From positions 44,944 to 108,943 of the IMG/VR virus record IMGVR_UViG_3300021254_000025: a DNA stretch of 64,000 nt; one strand, 5' to 3'. The notes under the pieces were generated by a model. The model did not search any database, was not told where the DNA came from, and saw only the letters and a list, made by a program, of their open reading frames with translations. Below are positions 1 through 54,101 of the stretch, in pieces. The number at the start of each line of letters is the position of its first letter. The first letter of the stretch is position 1. The DNA is from a virus. Its lineage: Duplodnaviria > Caudoviricetes. A program made the position numbers and the translations under genes.

Positions 1-3000
1 ATCAAATATAAAGATGATAATGGAAAACTACTTCCTACAGAAGAAATTAAAAAGAATATTGCAGAAGAAATTGAACGTTCAGGTGGAAAAATTTTTGCAA
101 ACAAAACAATGAAAGATGCTCAAGGCGGAATCCACTGGATGTCCAGACAAGCATCGCAGATTCTTGGTAATTCTCCGGAATTTGTCGAAATGACAACACG
201 AGCATTTTTAGACGAGTATGCCCGTGTTGGAACAATGCAGGGAGCTCTTGATACCGTCTTTGCTGGTAACTCAGAAATGAGAGATTTAATATTAGCAACA
301 AACGGTGCTGTCATGGGAGATAAGCGCATTCAGGACGAAATACAAGGATTCCGTCTTGGAATGCTTACGAGAATTTCGCAAGGAGATACAATTTTACCTA
401 GATCCTTAGAAACTTCCAGGGCAATGGCTCAACCATATTTCTTTAATGCAATTATATCTGGATTAAAAAACATAAACGAAAGCGGCACAGGCATAATTAA
501 AGACGGAGAAACAAAATCATATTACGATACACTGTACTCTCAAATGTCTGAAGACCAAAGAAAAACACTTGGTTTGCTGACTATGGATGATGACGAAATT
601 GCTTTTCAGAAGCTCATGGCTTCAGTTGTAGGAATTAGTCGGTATCCTGCAACGACACGTTCTGCAAGAGAAGTTAAAAATATATCTGTCGGAAACTCTC
701 AACGTGAAAAAGCAATTCAAAAGTATCTTTCAGATTCTGGTTTTGATCCGGATGCTTTTTATATTTCACCTTCATCTCCAGTTATGCAGCTTCTGCAAGA
801 CGCTGATTTCGATGGAGACGTCATGGATTTGATTGGTCTTGCATATACAGGTAAAAATAAAAAAGGCGAAAAAGTTGCAGCGGCAGAGATTTTGAAAAAA
901 GCTTATGATTTAGGTATAAAGAAAATAGACGAAAGAGGCCTTTCTCAAGCTGAAGCAGATAAAATAAAAGAAGAATTTAAACATAACGTCTTTGGTGCAG
1001 ATGATATTGATTTAAATAAAGGTATAGATGTTATGAAAGTACTCGTTCCAGCAATGCAGAATGGGTATTTTATGGGTGGTCCTGACGCAACTATTCGTAA
1101 CGCAATGCAAGTTCCTTGGGATTCAACTGTTTTAAAAGCTATGTCTGCTGCAGAATCACAATACAGTGTTAATTCTATTAGAAATAAGACTGGTATAGAA
1201 ATGGATACAACTCCGGAACAATTAGAAGTGTTATCAAAATACAGAGCATTTACGGAGTTTTTCCATATTGTCGATAAAAACAGAGATAAATATGGAAACG
1301 TATCCATTCCAAATTTAATCGAAAGCGCTAAAGGCAGCGATGGTTTGCTTGGCGCTAAATTCTGGTCAACCAATCTTCCGTTTAATACAATGTCTAGCAA
1401 TGTACGTTCTATGATGCTTTCTCGGTATTTTGCTAAACAAAGAGGCGTAGATATTAATAAAAATTATGACTGGAATTATATTTTTGATTCTGCGTTAGGG
1501 AAAAAGGATGAATCAACTGCTTTAGGTCGTATGCAATCTGCGTTACGTGATACTTGGATGGGATATTTAAATGCAGATTATCTTGCCATAGACGAAGAAA
1601 CAATTGCTAAATTAGGAGAATTGCGCTCTGCTGCAATTGATGAACAAGCAGCGTTAGTGAAAAATGAAAGAGATAGACAAGGTAAAGCGTTTAACGAAAA
1701 AGGATCAAATAGAGCAATAGCCGAAAGAGTAGTTAATAGATTAGGCGGCAAGGTTATTCAAAACGCATTGTCTGGTATGGCAATGTCCGCATCGCATATG
1801 CACGACGAAGGCGTAAATGATTCGATTTTCACAACATTAGAAGCAATGAAGTTACCAAACGTTGTCGGAGGTTTAGACTTTACAAAGTTATTATCTGCAA
1901 AAACAACTCCTAAAGCGTTTGAAGAAATGAGTGAACCCACTCAGAATACTAAACTTGCTAGACTTTTGGAGTCATTTAATTTGTTGACTGTAGATGAGAA
2001 AAAAAGAATGATTGACAATATGCCAAGACTTTCTTTTAGCTCATTGTCGAAATTTGCATATAATCCAGCAAACTTTATGGAAGACTTAATTACTGGACGT
2101 GAAAATAATTCAACGCTTGCTAGTACAGAAATTGGGCAAGCTGCACATACAGCAATTGAGCACTTTATGCAACTGCGAATGAATGCTTCAGCACCATTGT
2201 CAGAAGATCAGCTGAAAGCAGCACAAAAAGAAGCTCTTGATGTTTTTGACGAGTATCTTGGTTTAAAAAAGCAAGGAAAAGGATTTAAACTTCCTGCAGG
2301 AAGCAGAGGATTAACAGATGCTGAACGCCAAACGTTAAAAACAAGTGGAACAAACTTAAACGACAGATATTACGCTCTTCGTCAATTTTTAGGTGGAGAA
2401 GGATTATTAAGCATTTATCCAGAAAGCGATTGGCAAGTCGTTGGCATAGAATCAAGCGACGTAGGAAAAGGTCCAAAAACTGCTGCTGGAAATATGATAA
2501 TAACAGGTAAAGGGAAAAAATTAACAACAGATGAAGACGTAGGTATGACTGGTTCATACGACTTAAGATTCAGAAGCAGAAAAGATGACCAACGCGAAGT
2601 GATGGCAGATATTAAGAATTATTGGAAACCATCAGACGACGATTGGAAAAAATGGAGAGTACAGCAGGCTATTTATGATAGTCAACTTCAAAAAAATGGA
2701 GTAAACATTGGTGAAGTTGGCATTATAGAACCATACCAGAATCGAATTCGAAAAATGATTTTTTCTGATGCTGATTTAAATTTAAGTGATGATAATGTAT
2801 CTAGGTCGATTAATAGAATTCAACAACTTGCAAAAGAAAATACATCTATCGGAGACGTGCTTGATGCAGCTAAATTTCTCCGTGAAAACATGTTTGGAGA
2901 TATTAGGGAAAGTGTTGCAGATCAAATTGTTAACAGAAAAGGAAGTTCTAAAAGCGGAAAATTTAATACAGGAAGTATAACAGATGCTTTATGGTTGCAC

Positions 3001-6000
3001 GACAGATATAATGAAGCAATTGAAGCAGATGAAGAAATTCAAAGTTTTGTTAACAAAAGAACAAGAGAAAGAGATAAAAGGACTCCAGACGATGTAATAT
3101 GGAGATCAAAGTATAATCAAGCAAACTTACTTCTTGAGCAATCCAAACAAGAGGAAATTGCTGGTAATACAGCTCAGGCAAAGGACTTACAAGCTCGATA
3201 TGATGCAGCAATGAGCAATTTGGATCTTGGCCTTTCACAAGCAGTTGTGCTGGACACTGAAAACTTTGGAGAAGATATATTTAGGTCCATTGCAGGAAAC
3301 AGCGGAACAAAAGCCGGTCGAGCTTTAGTTGAATCTTATGATAAAGTACAGGAAAGATTTAATAATATTCGAAGAGATAAAGATTATTTATCAGAAAGAA
3401 TAGACGAACGAAACCAAGACATAGAAGATGCATCTGGTCGCATAAACAGTTTAAAAAGTCAAGAACGAGAACTCAAAGAAGAAAAAGATATATTAGATCG
3501 TATTCAAGGATATACTGATGCTATTAATTCCTCGGGTTTGACTACAAAAGAAAAAGGAATTGCTAAAAGAGAAAGAACAAAACTTCTCAACAGACATCCA
3601 GAATTAGCTTCTAGCGATGAATTCTTTACTATTAGCAGTGCTATAAAAGAAGGAAACGATAAACTTGCTGCTGAAAGACTTGAAACTGCAAGAGAAAAAA
3701 CAACATCCAGATTGCAAGCTACGCAAGATCTTAGAAAAAAACAAGAAGAGGAAATGGATTTAAAAGTTTCAGAAGTTGAAGCAATGACAAAAAATTTGGA
3801 TGCAGCTACTCAACAAGAGAAACTAAACGAACCATTTGTTCAACAGTATATTAAACAATTACAAGGATCTGCAACAGAACTTCTCGGAAATACATTCAAT
3901 TCTTTAACAGCGATGGTTGATAAAGAAGCCGCAAAGCCAATGGACTTAGCAAAAAATAGGCTTTCTTTTATTGAACAGATTAACAATGCTAAAGTCGACG
4001 CTAAAGATTTGTTTGAACGAGGACTTATAAGCGGAACAGAATTGACATCTCGGCTTTCTCAGGCAGAACATTTGTTAAGCAACGAATCCTTAAATCAGTT
4101 TGATCAAAATCAAATCGATGCTGCAAAATTAAAACTCGGAATAACTCAAGCATCGAAAGATGAAATATATAACAAGGGTTTACAAGAGCGTATTAATGTA
4201 TTAAATGCGCAAAAAGAGTTAAATGCAAGAAAAGCCGCGCAACAATTTAAAGAAGATCGTCTGACAAATCCTCATGCTCGTTTATCAGATTACAAAAAAC
4301 AAGTTGAAGATGAGTATAACAGTGAAGTAGAAAAAGTAACAGAACAGTATAAAAAAGATTTTGAATCACAAAACGATCTTCGTCAATTACAACAAGGCTA
4401 TGCAGTAAATCAGATTACTCGACGTGGCAATATGATGCGTATGAATCGCTTTGGCACTTCTAGAAATATTGCTACTCGTGCTTACAGCATCTATAATAAC
4501 GCTCTTACTCAAGCTGAAAATAGGAACGTTGAAGCGCAATCTAAGCTTCGAGCTTACGAAAAAGAAACTGCTGGATTAAAAGAAGGCGACAATGGTTACG
4601 CTGAAGCTCAGACTAACCTCGCGAAACTTAGAGAAGAAGCGCAAAGAGCAAGTCAGGATCTTTCTCAGCTTCAAAGTCCGTTTGGCAAAGCCAGTGCAAC
4701 TGCAGCTGTGTTTGGTCAAACAATTGAAAGAGTTGCAGCTCGTCTTGGTCGTCAACTTTTTCAAAAAGCTCTCCAAGAAACCAAGCGTTTTATAAAAGAA
4801 TTTGATGCTTCTATGAACGAAATACAGGCCATTACGCTTAAGTCAGATAGTGATATGGCTTCTGTTCGTTCTAATACAATTAATAAAGCTATTGGACTTC
4901 GTACTTCTGTTTCCAATGTTGCTAACACTGAAGCTGCTTTATATCGTCAAGGATTAAGCGATCAAGAAGTTTCAAATCGAACAGAATCTATCATTAAATT
5001 TGCTACAGTTACAAAACTAAACGTTACTGAAGCTACAAAGATTATTACAACTGCTCTTCAGAATGACCTGGTGCCTTCTGCAGAACAGGCAATGGACGCA
5101 CTTGTCGCGCTTGGTGATAGCGCTGCAACTACCGCCGCCGAAATTGGTAAAGGTATGCAAAAGGCTGCTGCATCTGCTAAAGTTGCAGGTGTATCTTATG
5201 CAGAATTAACTGCATTGCTCACTGTTGGTACTTCCGATACTCAGTTGAGCGGCACTCAGGTTGGTACGGCTTTGCAGACTGTCTTTACTCGTATGAGAAG
5301 AATTAGTCTTTCGGGCTGGACGGCAGATCAAAACGGTGAAAAAACAACTGCTTCAGATGCTGAAGCAGCATTAAAGTCTGTTGGTATAGATTTGTTTTCA
5401 GATAAGAACGGACAAAAGATGCGCACGGCATACGAAGTTTTAAGTGATCTTGCTGGTGTATGGGAAAAGTTGAGTGATGTTCAGAAATCCGTTGTTACAA
5501 ACGCTTTAGCTGGAACTAGACAGACAAATATCTTCTCAACATTAATGGAAGGTATGTCCGAAGACGGCGGCAAAAGGATAAAAGAATATCTTGACCTTGC
5601 TTCAAATAGCGGTGGAATAACACAATCAAAATATGAAATTGCTATGCAAAGTCTCGCCGCTTCTTTAGATACGCTTAAAAGTTCGTGGGATGCGGTTGTT
5701 GAAAGTTTTGTCAATAGCGGTGTTGTTACAGGAGCTCTTGATATTGTTTCAGGATTCCTTCAATTTGCGGCCGGATCGGATGCCTTTGAACAAGCAGGTG
5801 GCGTTATTGTCGGCACGTTAACAGCAATAGGTGGAGCAATTCTTGCATTAAAGTTGAAAATGCCAATCCTTGCTGGATTATCTGCTATTGTAGGATTAGT
5901 TGCAGGTATTGGTACTACAGGCGTATTAAAAACAATTTTCGGCGGCGGCTCCGTCGAAACAGATGAAGAAAGATTCGCCCGTGAAAGCGCTGCTGATCTT

Positions 6001-9000
6001 GCTAATGTAAATAATTATTATTCGAAGAGTATGTCTTCTTTAAATAATAGAAGAGATATTATAAGTGAAGCTCAAAAGAAATATGATGAATATTTAAAAG
6101 CAACCGAATCTGGAAATACAATATCAGAAAAAGATGCAAGAGCAAAGTTAATTTCTGCTATGAATGATTTAGGGAATGCCTTCCCTACCATTGCACCAGA
6201 AGTTAAAAATGCAACAACGAATCTTTCTGAGTTTTCTAGCGCTTTGACTAAGGCATCTGACGCTGCCGATGCCGAAGCAGCAAGAATACACAAAGAAACA
6301 GATGAAATGACCAAACAACATCAAGAAGTTTATGGACAACAAGAATACAATAAAAAGTTTGATGAAACTGTTATTGGTGGATTTGATTATGGTCATTTAG
6401 ATCGAGAAGCAATAAAATATTTATCCGAAGCTGGTGCAGACACAACATATTATGATGAAAATGGCGATTTACAATCTCATGAAATAATTGATAACTTTAG
6501 TACATCACAAAATATTTTTAGTGAAAGTAATAATCCAACGCTTGATAAAGCCACTGGTTTTGTTAATCTTTTTAATAAGAGTGACGTTGCTAAAAAAATC
6601 ATTGGATCATATTACAAAAACGATGAAACAATGTTATCTTTGCTTGGTACAGATCCTAAGAAAGTTAAAGATTTACAAGCTTCAGATCAAAGAATCATTG
6701 CAGCTGCTTACGATAGTTTTTGGAAAAATCGTTTTAAATTAGATTTTAGCAATGAAGAAACATATGATGCTCAGAGACGTACCTTTAATAATGATTATAT
6801 CAAAGAGTTGATTGGACAGTGGAATTTAAGCGATTTGGCAACAGACACTGTTAGTGAAAGTACTATACAAAATATTTTTACTGATAAATTTTTCAAGATG
6901 ATAACTGATGAAAACGGAGATATAAAAGATAAGTATTTCATTGGTGACTTATTGAATGTTTCCGCAATTTCAGCTGAAATTGACAACCTGAAGAAAAAAG
7001 GTTCAAATTATCTTCTTGAAGGATATACTCCTGAAGAGATAGCTCAATACAGAACATCTGTTGATAACGCTGTTGATGCTTCATTAATTGATTTAAGAAA
7101 GAAAAGACCAATCAATCAACAAAGAGAAGATTTAATTGCTGCTGTGTCTACAGCAACAAATATGTCAGAACTTAAGAAATCCTACGAAGAAAATGACAGA
7201 GCTCAAGAGTTTGCTAATGTTCTTGCGAATTCTCCTGAACTGTTATCTGCTTATGTGATGGCAACAGGCGAAAATCCTTCAATCACTTGGGAACAGTTTC
7301 AAGATATTGCAAGTAAAGCAAAGATCGGATATTCACAACCTGTAGATATTGTAAAAACAGCAATGAGCGCAATGGAAGCTGATAATGCATGGGCCTCTGA
7401 ATTTAAGAATGATGATGTATTTGAAGTAGTATATAAAAATATGCAAAATATATTCGGTGATATGACCGATGAGATATTAAAAGCATATGAAAATGGCGAA
7501 GTTTCTGAAGAGATTGAGAAATACATCAATCAGTCAATCAGCAAAAATTCATTAAAACCAGATACTGGATTGACGCAATACACAAAGAAAGAAATCGCAG
7601 ATCTTGCCGATAAAGCAATGTCAAGTGATTATAAGTCTTTGGCTGAATATGCTCAAGCAAATAATTGGACTAAAAGTCAGTATGATGCTGTTAATAGTAT
7701 TTATGGCGCTGAAATTGATAGATATAAAAATATGACAGAAGCACAGCGGACTGATATCGAAGGACTCAATCTTAAGAGAGACTTTGATGTTAAGATTGCT
7801 GTTGCTGGAATCGACGATCTTGAAAGTGCTAATAAAGTTCTTCAAGGAACAACTCAGTTAATTGAGAACCTTAAAAAGGGCGGACAATTTGAGATTAAAG
7901 CTAAGCTTCAAATGGAGTCTGATAATTATAATTTTGAACAGCAAGTAGCTATGCTTCAAAATGGAACTTCGGAAGAACAAATGAATGCTTTAATGAGCCT
8001 GAATCCAGGATGGAGTAAAGCTCGTATAGAAGCAAATATGACAGAAGCTAGAGCTAATGCAGATAGAGCAATTCAAGATCAAAGAGAACAAACGGCTGGA
8101 CGGCTCACCCAACTTGCAAAAACGATGGGTGTTGATTACGCACAACAAGAAGCTGCAAAAATGGGATATAAAACAAAAACAAATCCTATTTTAGTTAAAG
8201 ATGCGTTAGAAGAAATAAACAAATATGCCATTTATCAACCGTATCAATACGATGAAACAACAGGAGCATTATATTGGACGAGTAAAGATACTGGACAACG
8301 TTATGCAGCAACACCTGAGTTTCAAAACTGGTTTGACAGAATGGCGTTTGGAGAATTTGAACCAATTGGCACTACACAAGATATTGACAGAGAAAACCTT
8401 GCCTATGGTTTACAGCGTTCGAAAACTCCATATGAGATTGAACAAGCTCAAAGAGTAATTCTCAGCGGTGATACTAACAGGATTGATGAGTTAAGAAAAG
8501 GCAATAACGAGCTTTACCAACAAGCGTTTAATGGATTAACTCAAAATCAAAAGGATTATCTTGCAATACAAGATGAATATAACTCTATCATGAACCATTA
8601 CGGTGGCAGTACAGATTATTTACCAGGAGATCAAGAAAAGATAAACAGATATAATGCTATGCAAACTGCTGCATATGCAGACTTTGGATATAAAACAAGA
8701 GACGAGATTTATAATGCAGCGTCCTTATATAATCCAATAACTAATCCACAATTCTACAACGATTATGCTGCTGTTGTTGGTTCTGATATTGCAGAAAGAA
8801 CAAAAGATCAAAACTATACATTAACGGCGCCCGAAGAAAGCTATGCAACACTTCGCATGCAAAGGTATGCTCAAGGATATGATGGAATAACTCAGATAGA
8901 TAAAATTCAAGGCGCTTATGATATGATTCAATCTATAGAAGATGGAACATATCAAGATAAATACGGTAAAGCCAGCGAAGATATGAAAAAAGACTTCACA

Positions 9001-12000
9001 AGTGCTGCGACAGGGCTTGATGAATTAATTGATGCTTATCTTTCTCTTGATAAAAATGCTGTTGATTATGCTGAAAAAGAAGCAATAATCAAAGATAGAT
9101 TAACAGATACAAAAGCTGCTTTAAAGACAGCTGCTGTTGAAGCAAAAGGATATGGCGAAGCAAATTCAAAAGCTGCGAAATCAATGGGTGAGCTGGCAAA
9201 AGGCGGCCTCGCCCAAAAGAAAGAAATTGCACAGTTAACAAAACAAGCAAAAGATTATCAAGATGCTATTACAGCAGCTCAGAAAAGCACTGGCAAAACC
9301 GGTAAACAGATAGCAAAAGATCAAGTTGCCGTAAAACAATTTGGTAAAATCGGTTTTGATAAGTCAGACATAGAACAATGGACAAAAGAAGAAGCAACTG
9401 AATATTCAAAGTTGCTTGAAGATTCTATTCAAGAAAACTTTGGAACAGAAATGCTCCAACCTTTAGTGCAACAAGCACTGGACGAAATTAATGCTCAACC
9501 ATTTGAAGTTCGTCCAAAAATTAATATGATTACCGATCCACAAACAGGAGATTTGGATTTCAGTCAGTTGGCGGCTGTTGTGGCACAATATAATGAATCG
9601 TTAGCAGCCGCTTTAGAAATTTTCAACGGAATATTGGCAGAAGCACATGTTCGCGTTATAGCACAAAGTGATAAAGAAGGAAACGGTGATGTTAAAGTCG
9701 TTGCAGATTCTAGCACCTTTAAAACTGCAAGAGTTAAAGGCGGCGGACGTGGCGGATCGTATAATAATAAAGGTGGCGGAGGCGGCGGAGGTGGCGGTAA
9801 ATCCGCAACCGATAAGCTTCTTGAAAAACAGAAGCAACGCATCTCCGAAATTGAGCATCAATCCAAAATGCTTGAGATCCAGGAAAAGTATCTTGATTTT
9901 ACTAACGATTATGATAATTATGGCAGCAATATCGATCAACAGATTGCCAACCAGGAAAGATTAAGAAGCGCATACGCTCAAAGCATCCAGGAGCTTAAGA
10001 ACCAGCTCGCCACACTGGAGAGAGGTTCTGACGACTGGAACAAAGCTAATGAGCAGTTAATGCAATACGAAGAAAATCTTGAAAATATCAAGAACACGAT
10101 AAATGATCTTGGCGCTAAACGTATTACCATTGTTGAGCAGAAACAAGAAAACGAAGATAAGCGTGGCAGCCATAACCTTAACATGCTTTCCAAGATGGCC
10201 GCAAGATATCAGAAGAGCGGTCAATTTGAAAGTTACGAAGGTATTATGGAGCAAACCATCGAAGAAACCCGTAAACAGATTCATCTGAACGATAAACAAA
10301 TTACAGAATGGGAAAACCTGCTCAAAACATTCACAGAGAACTCTGACAGCTGGATTCAAACAAGAGACAAGATCTGGGCAATGAGAGAAGAGAATGCTGA
10401 ACTTCAAAATCAGATGGCTTCTGATCTTATTGATTTACAGGAAGCTCGAATCTCACAGATCGCTGAAGATCTTCAGAATCAGAAAGCGCCTCTTGAGCAT
10501 AGAGCAAATATGCTTGATACTTATGGGCAGATGTATGAATCTGTAAACGATTTTACAAAGTATCGCGGAACTCTTGAAGGTACGATTGATACCAATCGCC
10601 AGATGAAAGAGATGACCGATGCGGCTATTGCTCAAGTTAAGAAGCAGATCGATGGAATGAAGGAAAGCGATCCGGCACGACAGAGTGCTATTCAGACTCT
10701 GTACGAACTGGAAGAAGCAAGCGCTCAATACGAAGCTTCTATTCTTTCTAATCAGCAAGCTATTGAAGAGTCTTTGATCTCTGAACTTACTCAGGCGCAT
10801 CAGGACAGCGGCTCTATTCTTGAGCATGAACTGAAACTGTTAAGCGAAGCTGAAAAAGAATTTGTTCGTAATGATGACTTCGTCAATTACGAGAACATTC
10901 TTGAAGAAAAAGCTCGCAATGCTTCAGATCGGCTGAAAGACCAGCAGAATGCTCTTGAAGATTATCTTGCTTTACAGAATAGCGGTAAGATTACAGAGGG
11001 TGGCCAGCAATGGCGAGAACTCGAAGATACTATTCGTTCCACAAAAGAGAATGTTGCTTCTCTTAAGAATGAATGGCAGGAAGCATTACAAGCTATTGAG
11101 AAGGCTAAATTTACTAATCTGAAAGAAACCTTTGCTGAAACTTACGATCTCTCTCAGCACCAGCAAAAGCTTGTGCAGTATGATCAGACAAAGTATCAAA
11201 ACAATGGTCAGCTTACTAATTACGGTACTGCCCTTGAATGGGAAGGGAAAATCCTTGAAGATCAAAGAGACAGTATTCAGAATCACATCAAAGATTTAGA
11301 AGAACAGCTGAAAGAATCCAAAGAATTCCCGGAACTGTACAAAGAGATTACAAAAGAGATTATGACCTGGGAAGAAAAGCTTTCAGATACTAACAATAGG
11401 ATTGAAAAGAATACTGAGCTTATCGAGAAGAATCAAGATGCTATCCGTAAAGCTCGTATCGCTGTCGAAAACGAAGCTGATAAGGCTATTCGCGCTTGGA
11501 TTCAGAAGCAAAGAAATATGCTTTCTGCAACAGTAACAATGCAGAATAACATCTTTGCTGTTATTTCCAAGAACTATCAACAGCAATGGGCGCTGGAACA
11601 GAAGACTCTTGATAAGAAAAAGCAAACACTGAATGAAGAGAAAAATCTGATTAACGAAAGAGTCAACTTCCGTAAAAAGATGATGGATCAGGAAGCTAAG
11701 GATGAAGAGCTGGCTGAATACAGAAGGCAATTAGCTTTAATCAGCCAAGATACAACCAGAACAAGAGAAGCAAACGAACTCCGTCGTAAGATCCAGGAGA
11801 TGGAAAAGGAACAGGCAATGCAGAACGCCCAGGATGTTGCCAATGCAGAAATCCAATCCTTGAACGATCAGTCCAAGGCTATTGACGATTATGCGGCAAC
11901 ATATCAGGAGAATCTGACTGAACTGCTTTCCAATATCAATAACTTCAAAGATATTATCGATGGGTTATTAAGCGGATCGTTTGAAGACTTTGTAAATTGG

Positions 12001-13080
12001 AACGCTGAATATAACGAAGACTTTAAGAAGTCTTCGGATGAACAGCGTCAGCAATTGATTAACGGCTGGGAAGACACATGGTATACCATGCTTGGTCAGC
12101 TGAGAACCTATTGGGATCAAGTAGATGAATCCATGCAATCCAGAGATGGGTTCCTTGAACTGCTGAAAACTCAGGATGAATATCTTAAGCTTTCAGATAC
12201 AGGACGGGAAAGCTATTTGTATCGAGCCGGAGAATTATATGATTCCTTTACAGCTTCGATGATAGATGATGCTACATTTAGTGATAATCATGAGATTATT
12301 GATACAATAAACGATCTGAAGGACTGGACATTTAATGTAAATATTGCCGGTCTTGGAAACTATGACTTTGGTGGTACTATAAGCGATTATGTCTACAATA
12401 GAGACAGAAGTGTTATACCTTATGAGTATGACTCAGATTATAAGGGTGTTGGGTATGTTGCTCCGCCTCCTGCGCCTACTCCTGCTCCAACGTCATCTTC
12501 TGGCGGTGGAGGATCAGGCGGCGAAAGCAAACCTGCTGCTACGGCGCCGAAGGCTAAAAAATACAGGTATACTTATACGTTCGACGGTTCTCCTAAACAT
12601 GGTATAAATTTTGAAAGCGAACAAGCAGCAAGACAGGATGCATCCGCTCGAATCACTAATGATTATTCTGTTGCAAAGTCAAAAGGAAAAGGCATAATGG
12701 CAGCATCTGTACTATATGCAGCTGCTCTAGGTTCTCTGAAAATCGAAGCATATAAGAAAGGCGGCTTAGTCGATTATACAGGACTTGCTATGGTACACGG
12801 AACTCCGCAAAAACCGGAAGCATTCCTGAGCGATGAAGACAGGGCTAATATGAGAGCAATGCTCGATGCGTTCAATTACGTAAAAGCACCTACTATGACT
12901 CATATTGATCCTTCTATGTATGGAACCACAACAAACAATTACGGCGATGTTAACATTACGATTAACGAAGCTAAGATTGATAACGATCAGGATATTTCTG
13001 CTCTCGCACAGAAAATCGGTAAAGAATTTACTAAGGAATTGTCGAAGAGTGGCTTCAACACTGCGTCTTACGCGTGGTGA
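1..13080 (+). CDS. Giant tape-measure polyprotein (5'-truncated) with an RNAP-like catalytic region, a PD-(D/E)XK domain and a TP901-type tape-measure core
   Basis: Frame 1 is open from base 1 (IKYKDDNGK...), so the gene starts upstream of the window. TP901/PhageMin_Tail-like core at ~4790-5700 (EFDASMNEIQAIT...LGDSAATTAAEIGKGM...GTQVGTALQTVFTRM). Hydrophobic segment at ~5700-5940, long coiled coils, and C-terminal YKKGGLVDYTGLAMVHGT..PEAFL. Lies immediately upstream of Dit/Tal. Confidence 0.9.
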   Translation: MKYKDDNGKLLPTEEIKKNIAEEIERSGGKIFANKTMKDAQGGIHWMSRQASQILGNSPEFVEMTTRAFLDEYARVGTMQGALDTVFAGNSEMRDLILATNGAVMGDKRIQDEIQGFRLGMLTRISQGDTILPRSLETSRAMAQPYFFNAIISGLKNINESGTGIIKDGETKSYYDTLYSQMSEDQRKTLGLLTMDDDEIAFQKLMASVVGISRYPATTRSAREVKNISVGNSQREKAIQKYLSDSGFDPDAFYISPSSPVMQLLQDADFDGDVMDLIGLAYTGKNKKGEKVAAAEILKKAYDLGIKKIDERGLSQAEADKIKEEFKHNVFGADDIDLNKGIDVMKVLVPAMQNGYFMGGPDATIRNAMQVPWDSTVLKAMSAAESQYSVNSIRNKTGIEMDTTPEQLEVLSKYRAFTEFFHIVDKNRDKYGNVSIPNLIESAKGSDGLLGAKFWSTNLPFNTMSSNVRSMMLSRYFAKQRGVDINKNYDWNYIFDSALGKKDESTALGRMQSALRDTWMGYLNADYLAIDEETIAKLGELRSAAIDEQAALVKNERDRQGKAFNEKGSNRAIAERVVNRLGGKVIQNALSGMAMSASHMHDEGVNDSIFTTLEAMKLPNVVGGLDFTKLLSAKTTPKAFEEMSEPTQNTKLARLLESFNLLTVDEKKRMIDNMPRLSFSSLSKFAYNPANFMEDLITGRENNSTLASTEIGQAAHTAIEHFMQLRMNASAPLSEDQLKAAQKEALDVFDEYLGLKKQGKGFKLPAGSRGLTDAERQTLKTSGTNLNDRYYALRQFLGGEGLLSIYPESDWQVVGIESSDVGKGPKTAAGNMIITGKGKKLTTDEDVGMTGSYDLRFRSRKDDQREVMADIKNYWKPSDDDWKKWRVQQAIYDSQLQKNGVNIGEVGIIEPYQNRIRKMIFSDADLNLSDDNVSRSINRIQQLAKENTSIGDVLDAAKFLRENMFGDIRESVADQIVNRKGSSKSGKFNTGSITDALWLHDRYNEAIEADEEIQSFVNKRTRERDKRTPDDVIWRSKYNQANLLLEQSKQEEIAGNTAQAKDLQARYDAAMSNLDLGLSQAVVLDTENFGEDIFRSIAGNSGTKAGRALVESYDKVQERFNNIRRDKDYLSERIDERNQDIEDASGRINSLKSQERELKEEKDILDRIQGYTDAINSSGLTTKEKGIAKRERTKLLNRHPELASSDEFFTISSAIKEGNDKLAAERLETAREKTTSRLQATQDLRKKQEEEMDLKVSEVEAMTKNLDAATQQEKLNEPFVQQYIKQLQGSATELLGNTFNSLTAMVDKEAAKPMDLAKNRLSFIEQINNAKVDAKDLFERGLISGTELTSRLSQAEHLLSNESLNQFDQNQIDAAKLKLGITQASKDEIYNKGLQERINVLNAQKELNARKAAQQFKEDRLTNPHARLSDYKKQVEDEYNSEVEKVTEQYKKDFESQNDLRQLQQGYAVNQITRRGNMMRMNRFGTSRNIATRAYSIYNNALTQAENRNVEAQSKLRAYEKETAGLKEGDNGYAEAQTNLAKLREEAQRASQDLSQLQSPFGKASATAAVFGQTIERVAARLGRQLFQKALQETKRFIKEFDASMNEIQAITLKSDSDMASVRSNTINKAIGLRTSVSNVANTEAALYRQGLSDQEVSNRTESIIKFATVTKLNVTEATKIITTALQNDLVPSAEQAMDALVALGDSAATTAAEIGKGMQKAAASAKVAGVSYAELTALLTVGTSDTQLSGTQVGTALQTVFTRMRRISLSGWTADQNGEKTTASDAEAALKSVGIDLFSDKNGQKMRTAYEVLSDLAGVWEKLSDVQKSVVTNALAGTRQTNIFSTLMEGMSEDGGKRIKEYLDLASNSGGITQSKYEIAMQSLAASLDTLKSSWDAVVESFVNSGVVTGALDIVSGFLQFAAGSDAFEQAGGVIVGTLTAIGGAILALKLKMPILAGLSAIVGLVAGIGTTGVLKTIFGGGSVETDEERFARESAADLANVNNYYSKSMSSLNNRRDIISEAQKKYDEYLKATESGNTISEKDARAKLISAMNDLGNAFPTIAPEVKNATTNLSEFSSALTKASDAADAEAARIHKETDEMTKQHQEVYGQQEYNKKFDETVIGGFDYGHLDREAIKYLSEAGADTTYYDENGDLQSHEIIDNFSTSQNIFSESNNPTLDKATGFVNLFNKSDVAKKIIGSYYKNDETMLSLLGTDPKKVKDLQASDQRIIAAAYDSFWKNRFKLDFSNEETYDAQRRTFNNDYIKELIGQWNLSDLATDTVSESTIQNIFTDKFFKMITDENGDIKDKYFIGDLLNVSAISAEIDNLKKKGSNYLLEGYTPEEIAQYRTSVDNAVDASLIDLRKKRPINQQREDLIAAVSTATNMSELKKSYEENDRAQEFANVLANSPELLSAYVMATGENPSITWEQFQDIASKAKIGYSQPVDIVKTAMSAMEADNAWASEFKNDDVFEVVYKNMQNIFGDMTDEILKAYENGEVSEEIEKYINQSISKNSLKPDTGLTQYTKKEIADLADKAMSSDYKSLAEYAQANNWTKSQYDAVNSIYGAEIDRYKNMTEAQRTDIEGLNLKRDFDVKIAVAGIDDLESANKVLQGTTQLIENLKKGGQFEIKAKLQMESDNYNFEQQVAMLQNGTSEEQMNALMSLNPGWSKARIEANMTEARANADRAIQDQREQTAGRLTQLAKTMGVDYAQQEAAKMGYKTKTNPILVKDALEEINKYAIYQPYQYDETTGALYWTSKDTGQRYAATPEFQNWFDRMAFGEFEPIGTTQDIDRENLAYGLQRSKTPYEIEQAQRVILSGDTNRIDELRKGNNELYQQAFNGLTQNQKDYLAIQDEYNSIMNHYGGSTDYLPGDQEKINRYNAMQTAAYADFGYKTRDEIYNAASLYNPITNPQFYNDYAAVVGSDIAERTKDQNYTLTAPEESYATLRMQRYAQGYDGITQIDKIQGAYDMIQSIEDGTYQDKYGKASEDMKKDFTSAATGLDELIDAYLSLDKNAVDYAEKEAIIKDRLTDTKAALKTAAVEAKGYGEANSKAAKSMGELAKGGLAQKKEIAQLTKQAKDYQDAITAAQKSTGKTGKQIAKDQVAVKQFGKIGFDKSDIEQWTKEEATEYSKLLEDSIQENFGTEMLQPLVQQALDEINAQPFEVRPKINMITDPQTGDLDFSQLAAVVAQYNESLAAALEIFNGILAEAHVRVIAQSDKEGNGDVKVVADSSTFKTARVKGGGRGGSYNNKGGGGGGGGGKSATDKLLEKQKQRISEIEHQSKMLEIQEKYLDFTNDYDNYGSNIDQQIANQERLRSAYAQSIQELKNQLATLERGSDDWNKANEQLMQYEENLENIKNTINDLGAKRITIVEQKQENEDKRGSHNLNMLSKMAARYQKSGQFESYEGIMEQTIEETRKQIHLNDKQITEWENLLKTFTENSDSWIQTRDKIWAMREENAELQNQMASDLIDLQEARISQIAEDLQNQKAPLEHRANMLDTYGQMYESVNDFTKYRGTLEGTIDTNRQMKEMTDAAIAQVKKQIDGMKESDPARQSAIQTLYELEEASAQYEASILSNQQAIEESLISELTQAHQDSGSILEHELKLLSEAEKEFVRNDDFVNYENILEEKARNASDRLKDQQNALEDYLALQNSGKITEGGQQWRELEDTIRSTKENVASLKNEWQEALQAIEKAKFTNLKETFAETYDLSQHQQKLVQYDQTKYQNNGQLTNYGTALEWEGKILEDQRDSIQNHIKDLEEQLKESKEFPELYKEITKEIMTWEEKLSDTNNRIEKNTELIEKNQDAIRKARIAVENEADKAIRAWIQKQRNMLSATVTMQNNIFAVISKNYQQQWALEQKTLDKKKQTLNEEKNLINERVNFRKKMMDQEAKDEELAEYRRQLALISQDTTRTREANELRRKIQEMEKEQAMQNAQDVANAEIQSLNDQSKAIDDYAATYQENLTELLSNINNFKDIIDGLLSGSFEDFVNWNAEYNEDFKKSSDEQRQQLINGWEDTWYTMLGQLRTYWDQVDESMQSRDGFLELLKTQDEYLKLSDTGRESYLYRAGELYDSFTASMIDDATFSDNHEIIDTINDLKDWTFNVNIAGLGNYDFGGTISDYVYNRDRSVIPYEYDSDYKGVGYVAPPPAPTPAPTSSSGGGGSGGESKPAATAPKAKKYRYTYTFDGSPKHGINFESEQAARQDASARITNDYSVAKSKGKGIMAASVLYAAALGSLKIEAYKKGGLVDYTGLAMVHGTPQKPEAFLSDEDRANMRAMLDAFNYVKAPTMTHIDPSMYGTTTNNYGDVNITINEAKIDNDQDISALAQKIGKEFTKELSKSGFNTASYAW
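631..835 (+). other. Two-barrel RNA polymerase (beta'-type DPBB) catalytic signature inside the tape-measure ORF
   Basis: GISRYPAT (RYP at 640-648) ... AFYISP ... LQDADFDGDVMDL (DADFDGD at 799-819) parallels RpoC LNRAPTL ... AIQLHP ... YNADFDGDQMAV. Confidence 0.75.
2020..2760 (+). other. PD-(D/E)XK (AddB/RecB-like) nuclease domain inside the tape-measure ORF
   Basis: Motifs in the canonical order: RLSFSSLSKF..NP, GQAAHTAIE, VVGIE, MTGSYDL, MADIKN, VQQAIY. Confidence 0.75.
9856..11450 (+). repeat. Five degenerate 105-111-aa repeats in the C-terminal part of the tape-measure protein
   Basis: Units begin HQSKML (9856), HNLNML (10171), HRANML (10498), HELKLL (10825) and HQQKLV (11158). Each has a (D/Q)(Y/F/L)xxY pattern followed by a coiled-coil hairpin. 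Confidence 0.65.
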
Positions 13081-13206: not shown

Positions 13207-14313
13207 ATGCAGTGTGAAAAACTTATACGCGGCGGATTTTCTTTTTGCGGCGTGGATATTGCAGATCTTGGATTAAACTACGCACCGGAAAAAGAGAATA
13301 CCTATGTTTACCGTCCGGCTGAAACGACTATTCATGAAGAAACATTTGACGGTCATGATGGCGGATATTTTTATGGAGCTTCTAAGCAAATTAAAGAATT
13401 TATTCTTCGTTGCTATTTCGAAGAAGAAGCTATTGACCGTGGACTTATGGAACGTATTTATAACTTATTCAGAATGGGTAAGTCTGGGAAGCTTATTTTC
13501 TCACGCAGGCCGTGGTGTTACTATTATGCCACAGTGACAAGCTCCCCCGCCCCTGAACTTGCAAACTATTTAAACGGTACGATTACCATCACTATGAAAT
13601 CTTACTATCCGTTTGCAAGAAGCGATCTTTCATATAGTCCGGCTGATCCTAATGATGGCGGCGACAATACAATGCACGATCTGTTAATGAGAAGTACAGC
13701 GTTATTCGATAGACAGGAATTTATGACTCCCCTATCCTATTCGAATTTGACGACAAGCACTTCTTTATTACTACACAATCCAGGAACTGAAAGAGCAGAC
13801 GTGTCTATTGTTGCTGCTGGAGATGTAGGAGCCGGAATTACAATTCGAAACAAGACAACGAATCAGGAATGCAGAATTGTAGCTATGGATAAAGCTCATA
13901 CATCTAACTACAACAAAACTGTACGCATCGATGGTGTGAGTGGCAAGACTTCGTTGATCGATGAAGAAGGGAATGTTTCCCCTGCATATTTCTATCATGA
14001 GTCAGGATTTATTCAACTTGCGCCTGCGTATCCTATGCTTCGCGAGCTTTATATTGAAGCAATTTCCAATACGACTGTTCAACTTTATAACCGCATCTAT
14101 ACAGATGTGATTGGAAGTTATATTTACATCGGTGGCTCTTGGAGAAAAATAGTCGATCAGCCGACTGAAAATACTATCGTATTGGATCAGCATGCTTCCA
14201 AAACAAGTAATTACAGCACAGTAATTACAAAGATGAATGAGATTGAAATCATTCCTGATAATTCAATGGATTTAACTCATCTGAGTTTTTCCTATAAACC
14301 TACGTTTGCGTAA
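13207..14313 (+). CDS. Distal tail protein (Dit-like)
   Basis: Follows the tape-measure gene. GFSFCG N-terminus, G.DGGYFYG, GKLIF...YYYA, M.SYYPFA, NPGT. RBS AAAGGAGG. Confidence 0.8.
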   Translation: MQCEKLIRGGFSFCGVDIADLGLNYAPEKENTYVYRPAETTIHEETFDGHDGGYFYGASKQIKEFILRCYFEEEAIDRGLMERIYNLFRMGKSGKLIFSRRPWCYYYATVTSSPAPELANYLNGTITITMKSYYPFARSDLSYSPADPNDGGDNTMHDLLMRSTALFDRQEFMTPLSYSNLTTSTSLLLHNPGTERADVSIVAAGDVGAGITIRNKTTNQECRIVAMDKAHTSNYNKTVRIDGVSGKTSLIDEEGNVSPAYFYHESGFIQLAPAYPMLRELYIEAISNTTVQLYNRIYTDVIGSYIYIGGSWRKIVDQPTENTIVLDQHASKTSNYSTVITKMNEIEIIPDNSMDLTHLSFSYKPTFA

Positions 14314-14318
14314 AGGAA

Positions 14319-17300
14319 GTGAAAGGGATGCAACGCAAAAGGAAGTTATGTTTAACTATATATGATTATAACAACAATGTAGTATGTGATTTATATGATA
14401 ACAAATCAGACGTTTCCGGTCAGGCTACGGATGTTTACATTGACAAAGAACGCAACGGCTGGAAAGAATTATCTTTTACCATTCCTTCTACGTGCATAGG
14501 CGAAGATGGTTTAGAAGAAAACTATAGACTTAATTATTTAATTGCTGAGTATCAGATAAAAGCTGTGGATGATAAAGAAATAGACTGGTATGTTATTTCA
14601 GAACCAAACATAACAAGGAATAATTTTTCCAAGAATGTTTCCGTTAAAGCCGGTCATGTTTCGCAACTTCTGAAACACAAGAATCTTGATCTCGAATTTT
14701 CAGATGACGAAGGAAATAATGTTGGCACGGCTGAAGCCTTGTTAACGACAGTTCTTGAAGGTTCCAGCTGGAATGTCGGATATGTTGAGAATTTCCTCGA
14801 CGATAACGGAGAGGTTAAAATTCGTTCTATTACCGGCCCATCAGGAACAGGAGCTCTTGGATTTATTGAAAAGATCTGCGATGTATTTGAAGCAAAGCCG
14901 ATTTATCACGGCGATACGAAAACCGTAGATCTTATCAGCATGAATCCTTTAAGAGATATTGATCCAAGACAGATTCCTGCCAAGGTTCGGGATGAATTTA
15001 ATGTTCTTGAACTTCACTATGACAGAAACATTCACAGTTTAAGCAAGACAATCAATACAAACAGCATGGCAACGAGGTTATATGCATATGGTTCATCCGG
15101 AGACATGAACGGTGCATGTACATTACAAAATGCCAAACATTTTGAATGGCAGTTCACAGCACCGGAAACCGGAGACGAATACAGCATGAACCTTGAAGGA
15201 ATAGATAATTTCTTTCAAGGAAACGTGGATATTGGAGACGTTCTTATCTGGAGCAACATGGATATTACATCCATGACATATATCTGGAATCAAACCAAAG
15301 GTGAAGCATATGAATTATATGACAAGCCTAAAGGACGATATGTTCAACTTGTTCAACAGGATGTTTATCAGACAGAAAATAATTTTGCCTATTTGCTTGG
15401 GTTGAAATATTACCGTGATGTCGGTCTTATGTCTGATGAAACATTCCAGCAAGTTGCAAGATTCCAGAAGGAAATGCCGGAATATTATAAGATCGTTAAA
15501 GAGAAATCTGAATCTTATATAAAAGGCGAATCCGATTTAAGCGCCATTGCTGAACATAATACGGGCCTGCTGAAATTGAAAATCAGTTCAGTAGACGTTG
15601 AAACAGAAAGTGGAATTCCTTCAGAAGCATGGCCGCAGAAGTTCACAATTGACATTGATGAAGGCGACCACGGTGTACTTTACCGCACAGACTACGATAA
15701 AGCAGAACGAAGGTTTTTCCAGTGGCATGTAACAAGCCAACTGAAAGCTAATGGAGATCCGGTAACAGGAACACCAAGCGTATTGTTATTTATCCATAAC
15801 ACAGATCCTATTACTTGGGATATGGTTTATTTAAAACGTATCTATGACAGTAATGGAGAATTGGTAGTTAACAGCGAAGGTAAACCGGATGATTTTACTT
15901 ATACAACCGGAGACTTCCCTACCGCTGTGACTGTATGGGGTAACAATGTTAAATTCCAGACAAGCGACAGGGTTTACTTATTATGCACTAATAGTATGAC
16001 AGGTTTACTTGGCGGCCGCTTAAATGGAATCGAAGCATTAATCGAAAATCTCTACGCGACAACAAGAAAACATCCGACAACATTCTTTGATCTGGATGAT
16101 CCAACGCTTGTTCTTCCCTCTCCTTCAAACAACGAATATGAATGGTTGTATAAATACCACCATGACATGAGGGATGGAGAACTCTGGTTCTGCTGGGCCG
16201 CAAAAGGCGAAAGCATCTGGTACAGAGTATACTATGAAGACACCTTCCCTCTTGGCGTGGAAGGTGATTATTATTATGACCAGAAGCGCAAATGGCTTTG
16301 GAGGTTTACAAACGGCGATTGGACTAAATATGAATCCGTGCCGGATCAAAGCGTTGCTGATATGTTCTCTGAGGTAATCTATCTCTGCAAAAGAAGAGAT
16401 ATGTTATACAAAGGTCTTTATAAATACTATCAGTATAACGGTTATGTACCTGTTGGGAATTATGCTTTCTCAGACGGGTATGGATCATTCTGGACATTTA
16501 AAACCAAGAAAGATACGAATATTAAATTATTACTTAACACTGTTCTTGGATATGTCTTCCAGGATGATTCCGATGAAGTAGTATCTTTTTCGACTGTTGA
16601 ATCAGATACAGTATTCTATCCTCTCGAAAACGAACTGGAAGGCAAAACTTTATATAATGGGTCTATCGATCCTTCCAACGGTGTCGAGCAGGATGTTTCA
16701 AACAGATTCAGAACCGGAACAATCCGCGTATGGGAAGACACAAGGTATAACTACGATCTTCCTGACGGAACCTTTGTTCATTACTATGATGTGAACCTGA
16801 GATATCTTGGAGTTAACGGATTAAGTGGCGAAGGATCTTTCGTAACATTACCGCAAACAAGGTATATCAGATTCACTACAAATGTTCAGCAACCTGGCGG
16901 ATATGTTCATGTTGAAAACTACGATAATGTTTTTTACATGAACGAAGAACAATATTCTATTTTGGCTCCTGTTTATACAGATCTTGCCAATGTACCTGAA
17001 GATCAGGAGTTAATTGGTATCGATCCTTTGATGAAGAAGTTTGCAGATCTTGCAGATAAGACTTATGAAGAAGACTTAACGGCACTGAGAAATGCGCAGA
17101 CTCATATCAAAGAACAGGAAAACCTGTTATCCGATTCTTTAGGCGATATGCTTAAAGATGGTAGATGGCAGGATGCTAACTATATTTACGGTGACGAACA
17201 GCGTCTCTATAAAGATGCTATGACTATGTTCAAGCAAATTTCAGAGCCTGAGGTCAGCTACTCTTTCACGTTCCTTGATCTGTTTGGAACTCATCAGGAA

Positions 17301-20300
17301 GAGTACTATGAAACCCATGACGCTGAATGGCCTGACGTAGACATTGTAGATATATGCCATCTTGTTGATCAGGAATCCAAGACTAACTGTTGGGCATACA
17401 TCGAAAAACTTCATAAGTGTTACGACCAGGAATGGAAAACAACTCTTGATATCGATACTAAACTTACTATAGCATCCAAGCATAACTTCTCAGATGTTCT
17501 TGGGCGAATTGCTGAAGTAGCAAAAGATATCAGAGCGAAACAATCTATTTACGAACAATCGTTCACACGGCCTGTCGACAGCTCAAGATTACAGGGCATT
17601 ATCGACATCAATCAGAATATGTTGAACGGTGGTTCATCCAACTGGCATACCGACGAGAAAGGCAACATAATCTTTGAGGCTGCAGACGGACTCTCCGCTA
17701 TGATCTTGGGCGGCCGTGGAATGGGCGTAGCCAACTCACGTAACGCAGACGGATCGTGGGAATGGAGAACCGCTGCAACCGGTTATGGTCTGACAGCAGA
17801 TGAAATCAATACCGGAAAATTGTCTGCTGATCTTATTGAAGTTGGTTCTATTACAGCCGATAAGTTAATGAGTAATGTTGGACAGGAACTCGAAATCGGA
17901 AGCAATAAAGCATTGCAATTATTTGCAACCACAAACGGTTCCAGACCGGCAGGCTCATTACTTACAACCGACGCTAAAATAGAAATCAAGGCTGGATATG
18001 AAGAAGACGGCACTACAGTTCCGGCTGAAATCAATATTGCCTCCGGAGGAGAACTCAATCTCGAAGGCGGAAATGTTAATATTTCATCCGGTGGAACTTT
18101 AAATTTACAATCCACAGGAGCTTTCTATTTACGTGCAAAAGGTGCCGATAATATTAATTCTACAGCGGATGGTATTTATATCGGCACGGATGGAATGAAT
18201 CTCGGCGGTGGAAAGTTTAAAGTTGCTTTCAGCGGCGATACTTCTACAGTTAATATTACGGCTGCTTATTTTGCAGTTGGAGACTCTGCAAGAAAAGTTG
18301 CAGAATTCAGCGTTGATTCCAACAATGGTGTTATTAATATCCTTGCAGACAATCTTATTAATATTGCAGCAGGAAATACATTAACGCTTGTTTCCAATGG
18401 CGGCGGAGTGGTTATAGGTAATATAGGTCAAACATTTACAATTGACTCAGACACTGTAAATGCATATATCTATAACAGAATTTCTTCTCTTAATCCAACT
18501 AACGCCAGTGATGAGCTTGTTCCATTTGGTTCACTCGTACCCGGTATTTATGTCGGTACAGACGGTATTAACATTGCGAACATGGTGAAACTTGGAGCAG
18601 ATGGAAACGCAAAGTTCACAGGTGAAGTAAATGCCAATTCAGGTTTGATTGGTGGAATCCACATCGGAACTGCTGGTATATACAGTGGAAACAAGAGTTC
18701 TGCCGCTGCAGAATCGAACGGATTCTATATCGACAGCCTTGGTGCCATATATATCGGTCCACATGATCAAATAGGGTATTGTCCTTTCCAAGTGACAAAC
18801 GATGGATCTTTAAGAGCTGTTAAAGGCAATATTGCAGGCTGGTATATCAGGTCTGATTATCTTGGAAACGCAGAAACAAAGGATGACAGCACTATTGGTA
18901 TTGCCAATGCTACCGGTTCGAATATCGTATTCTGGGCTGGAGGAAACTACAACAGCAATCCTGATGCACCTAAGTTCATGGTGCAAGCCAACGGAACCTT
19001 AATCTCAACTCTTGGAAATATCGGCGGCTGGTATATAGGAGATTCCTATATAGGCAATAACTCAAGCAAAGAAGTCAGTACTGTTGGTATGGCGTTCTAT
19101 CCAATTACAGCAGACGATAGCAGTGTTGTATTTTGGGCTGGTGGAGCTTTCAGCAGCACTCCTTACTTTAGAGTAACCAAAGGCGGAATACTTTATGCTG
19201 TGGGTGCTGTTATTTCAGGAGATGCACACTTCTCCGGAACAATAGACGCAGGAGCAGTAGTTTCTTGTAACATCAGTGCTGATAGAATCACATCAGGAGC
19301 AATGAGCGCTGATCGTATCTATGGCGGAACTTTAACATTAGGCGGTGAAAACGGTAAGTTCGGCCGTCTTGTCATTAAAGATTCTCATAATGAAGATATA
19401 GGATATTGGGATAGAAGCGGTATCACAGCTTTAGCTGGAACAATCAGTGGTCCTGCTATTTCAGCTTGTGAAATCAGCGGTTCAACAATATCTGGTTCGA
19501 CCATCTCCGGTGGTTCTATCGTTGGTTCGAGCATTGACATCGGTGATGGAAACTTCACTGTTAATAATTTGGGACACGTAACAATGAAGAAATTAGTTAT
19601 TGATGGTACACCGGTGGATGTGTCGGATTTTGATAAAGCCGTCGCATATGGAAGTGGCGCATGGGACGGCACAACTTTTAATGCCACGTTTAATTTCTTT
19701 AAAGGTAAGATATCAAGAACAGTAGGAATATCATCATCAGTTGATGTAACATATATTTCTAGTCTCATGCCGTGGGCTGAAGGCGGATATGAGGGATATG
19801 CACTTGGAACTGTTGGCCTTGATCTGTATGTCAGCGGAGTAAAACGTTCAGAAGCTATAGAACGCGTTATGTTTGATGCATCGAAGTTATATAGTGCAGC
19901 ATGGGATCAAGCTCGTGAAGCTGTTTCGTATGAACCAGGTGCAAAAACAATTTATGTTCCAAGAAAAGGCGGCTTTAAAGGGCAAGACGTAGAATCATAT
20001 GATATAACTGCAACATGGACCGCCGGAGAACAAAGAGTATCTGCTGTAAGTGCAACTTTTTTCGGACTTCCTACAGATCCAACTCTTTCTGTTTTACTTT
20101 CTAACAGTAAAACGACAGCTAATGTACCAATGAATGGATTTAGCGATGTAAAAAACGCAATATGGCAAGATGGATATGATGCAGGCGCTGAAGATGCTGG
20201 TTCTTATAATGATGGCTGGAATGACTGTCTCGCTGCATGTACTTCACATACCTATTATACAGGAACATGGTATGACAAACTTTATGTTGCCCCAGCGATA

Positions 20301-53929: not shown

Positions 53930-54101
53930 ATACAGTAATTGAGCAGGTGAGGATTTGCACCTCACATGACAGCCTTTACCAAGATCGCGGGTCGCATGAG
54001 CCATAACTCCTTCTTCTCTCGGAGTAACGTTACCTCTCCGATGGTAGCTGTCTCCCGGTAGCACGTCTACCTTTTCCGTCACCGCTCGTTATACAGTAAT
54101 T
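53930..54101. repeat. 11-bp direct repeat ATACAGTAATT flanking the tRNA-like element
   Basis: Copies at 53930-53940 and 54091-54101. Confidence 0.75.
53940..54087 (-). ncRNA. tRNA-like RNA with an expanded anticodon domain
   Basis: Minus strand: GAGCGG/CCTGCTC-A acceptor-like stem, Leu/Ser-type D arm ACG-GAAAAGGTAGA-CGT, T arm TGAGG-TGCAAAT-CCTCA. The ~95-nt middle is closed by GACAGC/GCTGTC and TACCA/TGGTA. Confidence 0.65.

Follow-up and report, generated by a model that had tools for sequence, protein, structure and literature searches.

The window analyzed here, a 64,000-nucleotide stretch of phage DNA (Duplodnaviria, Caudoviricetes) covering bases 44944-108943 of the single 108,943-bp virus contig IMGVR_UViG_3300021254_000025, opens within a giant open reading frame (ORF) whose product joins a confidently predicted two-barrel RNA polymerase to a bona fide tape measure protein. 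The presence of a polymerase fold with an intact predicted active site at the N terminus of a tape measure makes it probable that the phage delivers a transcription enzyme of its own into the cell. We consider the complete reading, in which a tape-measure-fused two-barrel polymerase is expelled at infection to transcribe the first viral genes, to be likely. The original prediction, made from the window sequence, had cited as a precedent the tape-measure-fused virion RNA polymerase of phage P23-45, and this protein (gp96) is indeed described by Chaban et al. 2024 (PMC10770324). Positions on the whole contig (40% GC) are given below as genome positions.

A predicted polymerase fused to a tape measure protein

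The original prediction described a tape measure ORF, open off the left edge of the window, that carries an RYP motif, AFYISP, and DADFDGD in this order. The coordinates were exact: in frame 1 of the plus strand, GISRYPAT is encoded at window nt 631-654 (RYP at 640-648), AFYISP at 754-771, and DADFDGD at 799-819, and no stop codon interrupts this frame from nt 1 to 13080. When completed upstream, the ORF was found to start with an ATG at genome 42898, just after GAAGAGGTG and 2,046 nt ahead of the window, and to continue without a stop to 58023 (15,126 nt, 5,041 aa). Codon 683 begins at window nt 1, and the C-terminal 4,359 codons (window 1..13080, plus strand) encode the rest of the polymerase, a nuclease-like module, and the tape measure. 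A DNA pattern encoding DxDGD occurred at two sites in the contig, one in this ORF and one in the gene of a second polymerase (see below), and the reversed-pattern control gave none.

An HMMER search with residues 1-1200 over 1.84 billion cluster representatives (clusters at 50% identity) identified 65 proteins at E ≤ 1e-3, of which 54 reached 1e-10 and 27 reached 1e-30. The closest homolog is 96% identical and likewise 5,041 aa long, and 27 of the 65 proteins are giants of 3,695-6,494 aa. The query was aligned with 33 homologs of at least 850 aa over their first 1,350-1,450 residues; shorter proteins and P0017, which ends before the motif, were dropped. Thirteen positions were identical in all 34 rows, where identity to the query was as low as ∼20%: F626, Q627, R629, K634, K679, Q732, F769, P815, R896, P898, D951, D953, and D955. 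The metal-binding loop D951-F-D953-G-D955 (window 805..819) had been expected to be conserved in homologous proteins, and it is; besides the invariant Asp triad, G954 was kept in 33 of the 34 rows, and the variants of the loop were DFDGD, DEDGD, DLDGD, DYDGD, and, once, DFDSD. The RxP motif, R896-Y-P898 (window 640..648), sits 52 residues before D951, within the spacing of a published two-barrel filter ([RK]xP located 20-100 residues before DxDxD; Supplementary Data 4 of PMC10770324). The invariance of the Asp triad, the RxP motif, and the basic residues in proteins this divergent argues for selection on catalysis.

We modeled residues 1-1200 with AlphaFold2 from a 31-row alignment and obtained a mean pLDDT of 85.5 and a pTM of 0.83. 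In this model, residues 1-190 are helical, the polymerase comprises residues ∼200-1200, and the chain is predicted to adopt a single-chain two-barrel RNA polymerase fold whose active site is intact. Residues 683-1200, which make up the C-terminal half of the module, occupy window 1..1554 on the plus strand. A double-psi beta-barrel (DPBB) is predicted around the motifs, as had been anticipated: the beta-prime-type catalytic barrel, DPBB-A (residues 881-964; window 595..846, plus strand), includes strands 881-883, 889-895, 905-909, 935-937, and 956-964 and helices 916-928 and 942-946, and the DFDGD loop follows strands 889-895, 905-909, and 935-937. Past this barrel, where a bridge helix and a trigger loop would be expected, lie the long helices 1023-1050 and 1057-1073, in a region with the conserved residues M1040, G1041, Y1070, and K1078. 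A second barrel bearing conserved lysines had been expected upstream of the window, and six strands at residues 614-674 are predicted to form one, DPBB-B (residues ∼614-680; genome ∼44737-44937, plus strand). The FQxRxxxxK block and K679 are encoded at genome ∼44773-44934, which is 10-170 nt ahead of the window start; R629, K634, and K679 are the invariant basic residues of this predicted beta-type barrel, and its lysines are candidate counterparts of the known ones.

The predicted structure was compared with known polymerases, as had been proposed. Foldseek returned 22 matches in the PDB at E ≤ 1e-3 (best 4.1e-10), and among the matches listed all were to QDE-1, RDR2, or phi14:2 gp66; gp62 of phage P74-26 came next (E 1.4e-3). 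VIA re-alignment gave scores of 15.5 for RDR2, 14.9 for QDE-1, and 13.2 for gp62, with the RDR2 and QDE-1 alignments covering model residues 388-1170, a span that includes the six strands of DPBB-B. P23-45 gp96 was not in the Foldseek matches listed and surfaced only in a Foldseek-independent structure search; its two crystal forms scored 10.8 each by VIA, with 366 and 350 aligned residues (model 429-1094 versus chain 327-1077). The score for phi14:2 gp66 was 7.3. All that remained on the VIA list below these enzymes were helical bundles matching the N-terminal 130 residues, which indicates that the match is specific to single-chain two-barrel RNA polymerases.

The same polypeptide is a tape measure, as had been claimed. 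PhageMin_Tail (PF10145) matched residues 2314-2520 (window 4894..5514, plus strand) with E 1.3e-29 and 104 bits against a cut-off of 33.2, ten PHROG tape measure families matched the giant protein, and one or more hydrophobic, Gly-rich membrane segments follow this core domain at residues 2614-2662 (window 5794..5940, plus strand; Kyte-Doolittle mean >1.6 in a 19-residue window). The gene is directly followed on the plus strand by one for the distal tail protein Dit (window 13207..14313; PHROG 33, E 1e-18; Sipho_tail, 30.4 bits versus a cut-off of 24.2) and then by one for a 2,019-aa Tal-like tail-tip protein (window 14319..20378; PHROG 6211 minor tail protein, E 1.2e-26; YOMG_N, 28.9 bits versus a cut-off of 27). 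PhageMin_Tail was present downstream of the polymerase part in 10 of the 10 giant homologs tested, and the fusion is therefore a family trait rather than an accident of assembly.

A free-standing candidate polymerase and a conserved hairpin element

The contig encodes a second candidate polymerase. P0067 is a 906-aa, free-standing two-barrel RNA polymerase predicted from motifs and a model; its gene (genome 21259-23979, minus strand) lies 19 kb upstream of the giant gene and is not part of the window. It contains the motifs GYGIKG, VRYPHG, and GADYDGD. Its 37 homologs are metagenomic and 56-92% identical, and K153, G154, R399, Y400, P401, D451, D453, G454, and D455 were invariant in the 26 aligned rows of the family. 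The structural model (pLDDT 86.5) matched QDE-1/RDR2 (E 3.8e-9) and P23-45 gp64 (E 3.9e-3, probability 0.99) in Foldseek. Pfam RdRP scored 18.7 bits, under its cut-off of 23.8. Searches of PDB sequences yielded nothing relevant with phmmer and no match with the family HMM, no PHROG matched, and the 50,697 phage records searched by tblastn contained no match at E ≤ 0.01. When P0067 was compared by BLASTP with the tape measure polymerase, only 11 residues around DxDGD aligned. An hhalign comparison of the two families placed RYP and DxDGD in register (E 6.3e-4, probability 28%), from which we claim no common origin.

Eight GC-rich hairpins, each followed by TTTTTTTATTTT, were noted between the minus-strand genes around the P0067 gene (genome 18988, 19487, 20414, 24198, 24969, 25350, 26288, and 27270, minus strand). 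TTTTTTTATTTT is a run of T, nearly the same in every copy and interrupted by a single A whose position does not vary. We take these eight repeats for intrinsic terminators, although an AT-rich start signal might also be marked by the invariant A together with the conserved bases that follow.

The fusion was found on four other contigs. Three of these were identified by a pattern search built on an 8-row alignment: G001 (44.7 kb, rated 36% complete), G002 (124.6 kb), and G003 (115.4 kb, with terminal repeats), whose polymerase parts are 45%, 32%, and 27% identical to that of the giant protein. The fourth, G004, is contig 9 of an Acutalibacteraceae metagenome-assembled genome (136 kb; polymerase part 45% identical). 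The P0067-family profile had no match in G001-G004. Their partner polymerases were located by the DxDGD DNA pattern followed by translation; each genome has a frame, open over at least 815 aa, in which RxP precedes DxDGD by 40-50 residues, and G002 has two. Both G002 frames passed the Pfam RdRP cut-off (41.1 and 34.9 bits), those of G001 (22.4) and G004 (19.6) fell below it, and the G003 frame had no RdRP match. The assignments in G001, G003, and G004 are made at the level of motifs. The free-standing frames are opposite in strand to the tape measure in all five genomes. As judged by these motifs, every fusion genome examined (5/5) pairs the fusion with a free-standing candidate polymerase.

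A 29-nt element, CATGTGAGGTGCAAATCCTCACCCGCTTA, was detected by k-mer count. It has five copies, all on the minus strand (genome 6039, 6378, 7169, 7898, and 98883); the last, a copy of the element CATGTGAGGTGCAAATCCTCAC.., is at window 53940..53968 upstream of minus-strand genes, and the other four are outside the window. Four of the copies end 25-36 nt ahead of an ATG with a ribosome-binding site, and the copy at 6378 precedes an ATG by ∼42 nt without a clear ribosome-binding site. No copies were found in 20 shuffled genomes with up to 8 mismatches allowed. The 13-nt core of the element recurs in G002 (two copies), G003 (two), and G004 (five), in each case on the strand opposite the tape measure; no copy was found in G001, which is a fragment with a completeness rating of 36%. 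The five G004 copies are confined to the phage contig; the remainder of the 2.3-Mb bin had none, and neither did the controls. The element is accordingly present in four of the five fusion-carrying genomes. Nine copies were aligned, the five of G004 not being included. The 6-bp stem paired in 54 of 54 cells with compensatory changes in four of the six pairs (a score reached by none of 500 shuffles), and the TGCAAAT loop was invariant. ARAGORN predicted no tRNA gene in the element, and that identity was rejected; there was also no Rfam match at E ≤ 1. The hairpin may be a phage-specific promoter or an RNA signal.

Another repeat, the 12-mer GGTGAAGTGGGA (five copies), was considered as a signal and rejected, as it is a shared gene end that overlaps the next start codon. 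It derives from five small paralogous genes (window ∼54900-59450, minus strand) whose products have a zinc-ribbon-like end, CxxCG..VKW(D/E).

The nuclease-like module and the surrounding genes

Between the polymerase and the ruler lies a module resembling PD-(D/E)XK nucleases (residues ∼1358-1600; window 2026..2754, plus strand). The evidence consists of a Pfam PDDEXK_1 match of 18.2-18.5 bits, under the cut-off of 22, a match to PHROG 69 exonuclease (E 4e-4), and the G.[YF]DL.F, D[IM]KNY, and Q..Y motifs expected of the superfamily, which were invariant in a 7-row alignment. No match was obtained when the module was compared with PDB sequences. Among the 65 family proteins, a local HMM of the module recovered eight full-length relatives plus a fragment (P0002-P0005, P0007-P0010, and P0021), and ten more distant giants had no PDDEXK module by Pfam at E ≤ 0.01. 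The nuclease-type motifs are kept in the closer relatives only. A nuclease-like module on a putatively ejected protein is unexpected. Within the ruler itself we noted a run of nine glycines (residues 3940-3948; window 9772..9798, plus strand).

Upstream of the giant gene are terminase, portal, head, and tail genes, and beyond the tail-tip gene are many tail-fiber paralogs, a holin, and a lysozyme-type endolysin. Tail-fiber-like paralogs of ∼200-270 aa form two plus-strand runs, at window 24427-27524 (four genes) and 45146-47030 (three genes), and all of them match the C terminus of PHROG 5717. The tail region also encodes giant proteins of 2,353 and 973 aa that have no functional assignment. 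A group I intron (Rfam, 58.4 bits versus a cut-off of 50) is located inside the structural gene module at genome 39473-39724 (plus strand), between ORFs of 82 and 188 aa, and may split a tail or head gene. Rfam detected six tRNA genes, at genome 2074-2510, 5721-5793, and 15149-15223 (minus strand) and 33116-33188 (plus strand), of which ARAGORN names five (Leu-taa, Pro-tgg, Ala-tgc, Ile-tat, and Asn-gtt).

The original prediction of a Firmicutes host received indirect support. The best large terminase subunit (TerL) relatives belong to Clostridium and Bacillus phages, the tail-tip protein carries the N-domain of SPbeta YomG, and one relative is on the Acutalibacteraceae contig. The relatives of this phage point to Clostridia or Bacilli, and those of the phages that carry the family point to gut or anaerobic Firmicutes.

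Proposed mechanism, alternatives, and comparison with known systems

By analogy with P23-45 gp96, the giant protein would be built into a long non-contractile tail and act there as the ruler. When the phage infects, the ruler would be expelled and would form or line a channel through the cell envelope. The polymerase end, which is head-proximal, would exit after the rest of the protein, encounter the entering DNA before any other part does, and transcribe the first genes without the host RNA polymerase; its template is probably DNA. The free-standing P0067 would then take over later transcription, and one of the two enzymes might use the 29-nt hairpin as a phage-specific promoter. The analysis shows the sequence and its conservation, the predicted fold, the fusion, the gene context, and the co-occurrence of the two polymerases. 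We infer catalysis, virion presence, ejection, template, timing, and promoter, with packaging in the tail, ejection, and early transcription being drawn by analogy.

Several observations weigh against this proposal. Searches of PDB sequences with residues 1-1500 (phmmer) gave no matches at E ≤ 10, and an HMM of 21 family members yielded only coiled-coil matches to residues 1-180 and no polymerase at the same threshold. Pfam at E ≤ 10 returned nothing for residues 1-1357, RdRP (PF05183) included. There was likewise no PHROG match for residues 1-1335 and no tblastn match of the polymerase part in the 50,697 phage records. The best structural matches are RNA-dependent polymerases, which makes a DNA template less than certain. 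The inter-barrel stretch of the model comprises ∼200 residues with several helices, and the flat, clamp-less shape proposed for the tail passage of gp96 may be absent here. No metallopeptidase was found in the window-encoded residues 683-5041 by Pfam at E ≤ 0.1, a scan of 4,359 residues that gave only PhageMin_Tail and the weak PDDEXK_1 match. The other 38 of the 65 homologs are 54-1,818 aa long, and some of them may be unfused forms or fragments. Lastly, the contig is rated linear and 74% complete.

In one alternative, an active two-barrel polymerase is delivered with the tape measure but is not a promoter-specific transcriptase. Like QDE-1, it might synthesize primers or short RNAs from single-stranded templates of DNA or RNA; for example, it might prime phage replication or copy the entering strand. 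We find this rather unlikely. The phage enzyme YonO is a DNA-dependent transcriptase, and a second polymerase accompanies the fusion in all five genomes, as in the two-step transcription scheme of P23-45. The characterized phage-borne members gp96, gp64, and phi14:2 gp66 are also DNA-dependent transcriptases according to PMC10770324.

In another alternative, the polymerase domain is not ejected; it would be cut off during tail assembly or would serve structure or assembly at the end of the tail nearest the head, with catalysis being irrelevant or late. The size of the domain lends this view some weight, as a folded domain of ∼110 kDa is a tight fit for a siphovirus tail tube. Furthermore, if the long connector forms a clamp, the domain would pass through the tail less easily than the flat gp96. 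Set against these points are the invariant active-site residues of the 34 aligned proteins, the retention of the fusion in 10/10 giants, and the total lack of cysteine among the 5,041 residues, and we judge the scenario to be improbable. An artefact, either a chance motif or an assembly chimera that joined a polymerase gene to a tape measure gene on this incomplete, metagenome-derived contig, can be practically dismissed given the 27 independent cluster representatives with giant fusions, the four additional contigs, and the confident and specific fold prediction.

Returning to the injected transcriptase that we favor, a bolder version is that a tape measure gene in a large group of uncultured phages, probably of Clostridia, independently and convergently captured a QDE-1/RdRP-like polymerase, yielding an injected polymerase, a PD-(D/E)XK nuclease, and a channel-forming ruler in one protein, with transcription starting at the conserved DNA hairpin. 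Hairpin promoters are used by the unrelated virion polymerase of phage N4. We offer this version tentatively and doubt that it holds in full.

In the 2024 publication, the fusion was presented as peculiar to four related Thermus phages, and the same architecture occurs here without sequence similarity to gp96 in a family of 65 clusters, 27 of them giant, from uncultured phages. If the proposal is correct, injection of a ruler-tethered polymerase would be a recurrent strategy rather than an oddity, and the family would provide a second system, this one mesophilic, in which to ask how an enzyme of 110 kDa crosses or sits on the tail. The partner polymerase in 5/5 genomes and the candidate promoter suggest a two-polymerase relay. 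The findings also bear on the origin of the eukaryotic RNAi polymerases, the nearest relatives in structure.

Among free-standing enzymes, YonO of Bacillus phage SPbeta is a single-chain two-barrel polymerase of a large Firmicutes siphovirus that is not fused to a tape measure. SPbeta shares the YomG N-domain with the tail-tip protein described here, and it should be among the phage records in which P0067 had no match. P23-45 gp64 and P74-26 gp62 (PDB 8F72 and 8F5M) are also free-standing, with ∼590 resolved residues and no sequence similarity. QDE-1 and RDR2 (PDB 2J7N, 7Y7P, and 7W82; Pfam RdRP) are eukaryotic RNAi polymerases, whereas the present enzyme is part of a phage tape measure protein without an RdRP match. 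In the crAss-like phage protein phi14:2 gp66 (PDB 6VR4), a two-barrel polymerase likewise belongs to a giant protein of the virion, which is delivered upon infection.

The closest system in architecture is P23-45 gp96, for which PMC10770324 reports that the first ∼1,000-1,200 residues of a 5,002-aa tape measure constitute an active virion RNA polymerase, flat and without a clamp (PDB 8H2M and 8H2N), a shape proposed to let it pass through the tail. There, gp96 is stated to transcribe pre-early genes, among them that of the second polymerase, gp64, and to be, in the authors' view, likewise without sequence-detectable kinship to known polymerases; besides P23-45, the gp96-type fusion is reported only for P74-26, G20c, and TSP4. 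The protein described here resembles gp96 in having the polymerase N-terminal to the tape measure in one polypeptide (5,041 versus 5,002 aa), in its predicted structure (VIA score noted above), and in the companion non-virion two-barrel polymerase, here P0067. It differs in lacking sequence similarity to gp96 (both PDB searches included 8H2M and 8H2N), in the location of DFDGD (951-955 versus 779-783), in a connector of ∼200 rather than 66 disordered residues, in a structure nearer to RDR2, QDE-1, and gp62 than to gp96, in the extra PD-(D/E)XK-like module with no metallopeptidase domain found, and in a 40% GC phage whose relatives point to Clostridia or Bacilli rather than Thermus. A full-text literature search found no paper beyond PMC10770324 describing a fusion of tape measure and polymerase. 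A supplementary table of two-polymerase viruses in that source includes metagenomic siphoviruses under other profile names. The present family may already sit, differently named, among the 23 families of its Supplementary Data 3, for example as the profile Cyano_RUMTOR_01356, CAC1139, or CPE1103. On this comparison, the family is an apparently widespread, sequence-unrelated variant of the P23-45 arrangement.

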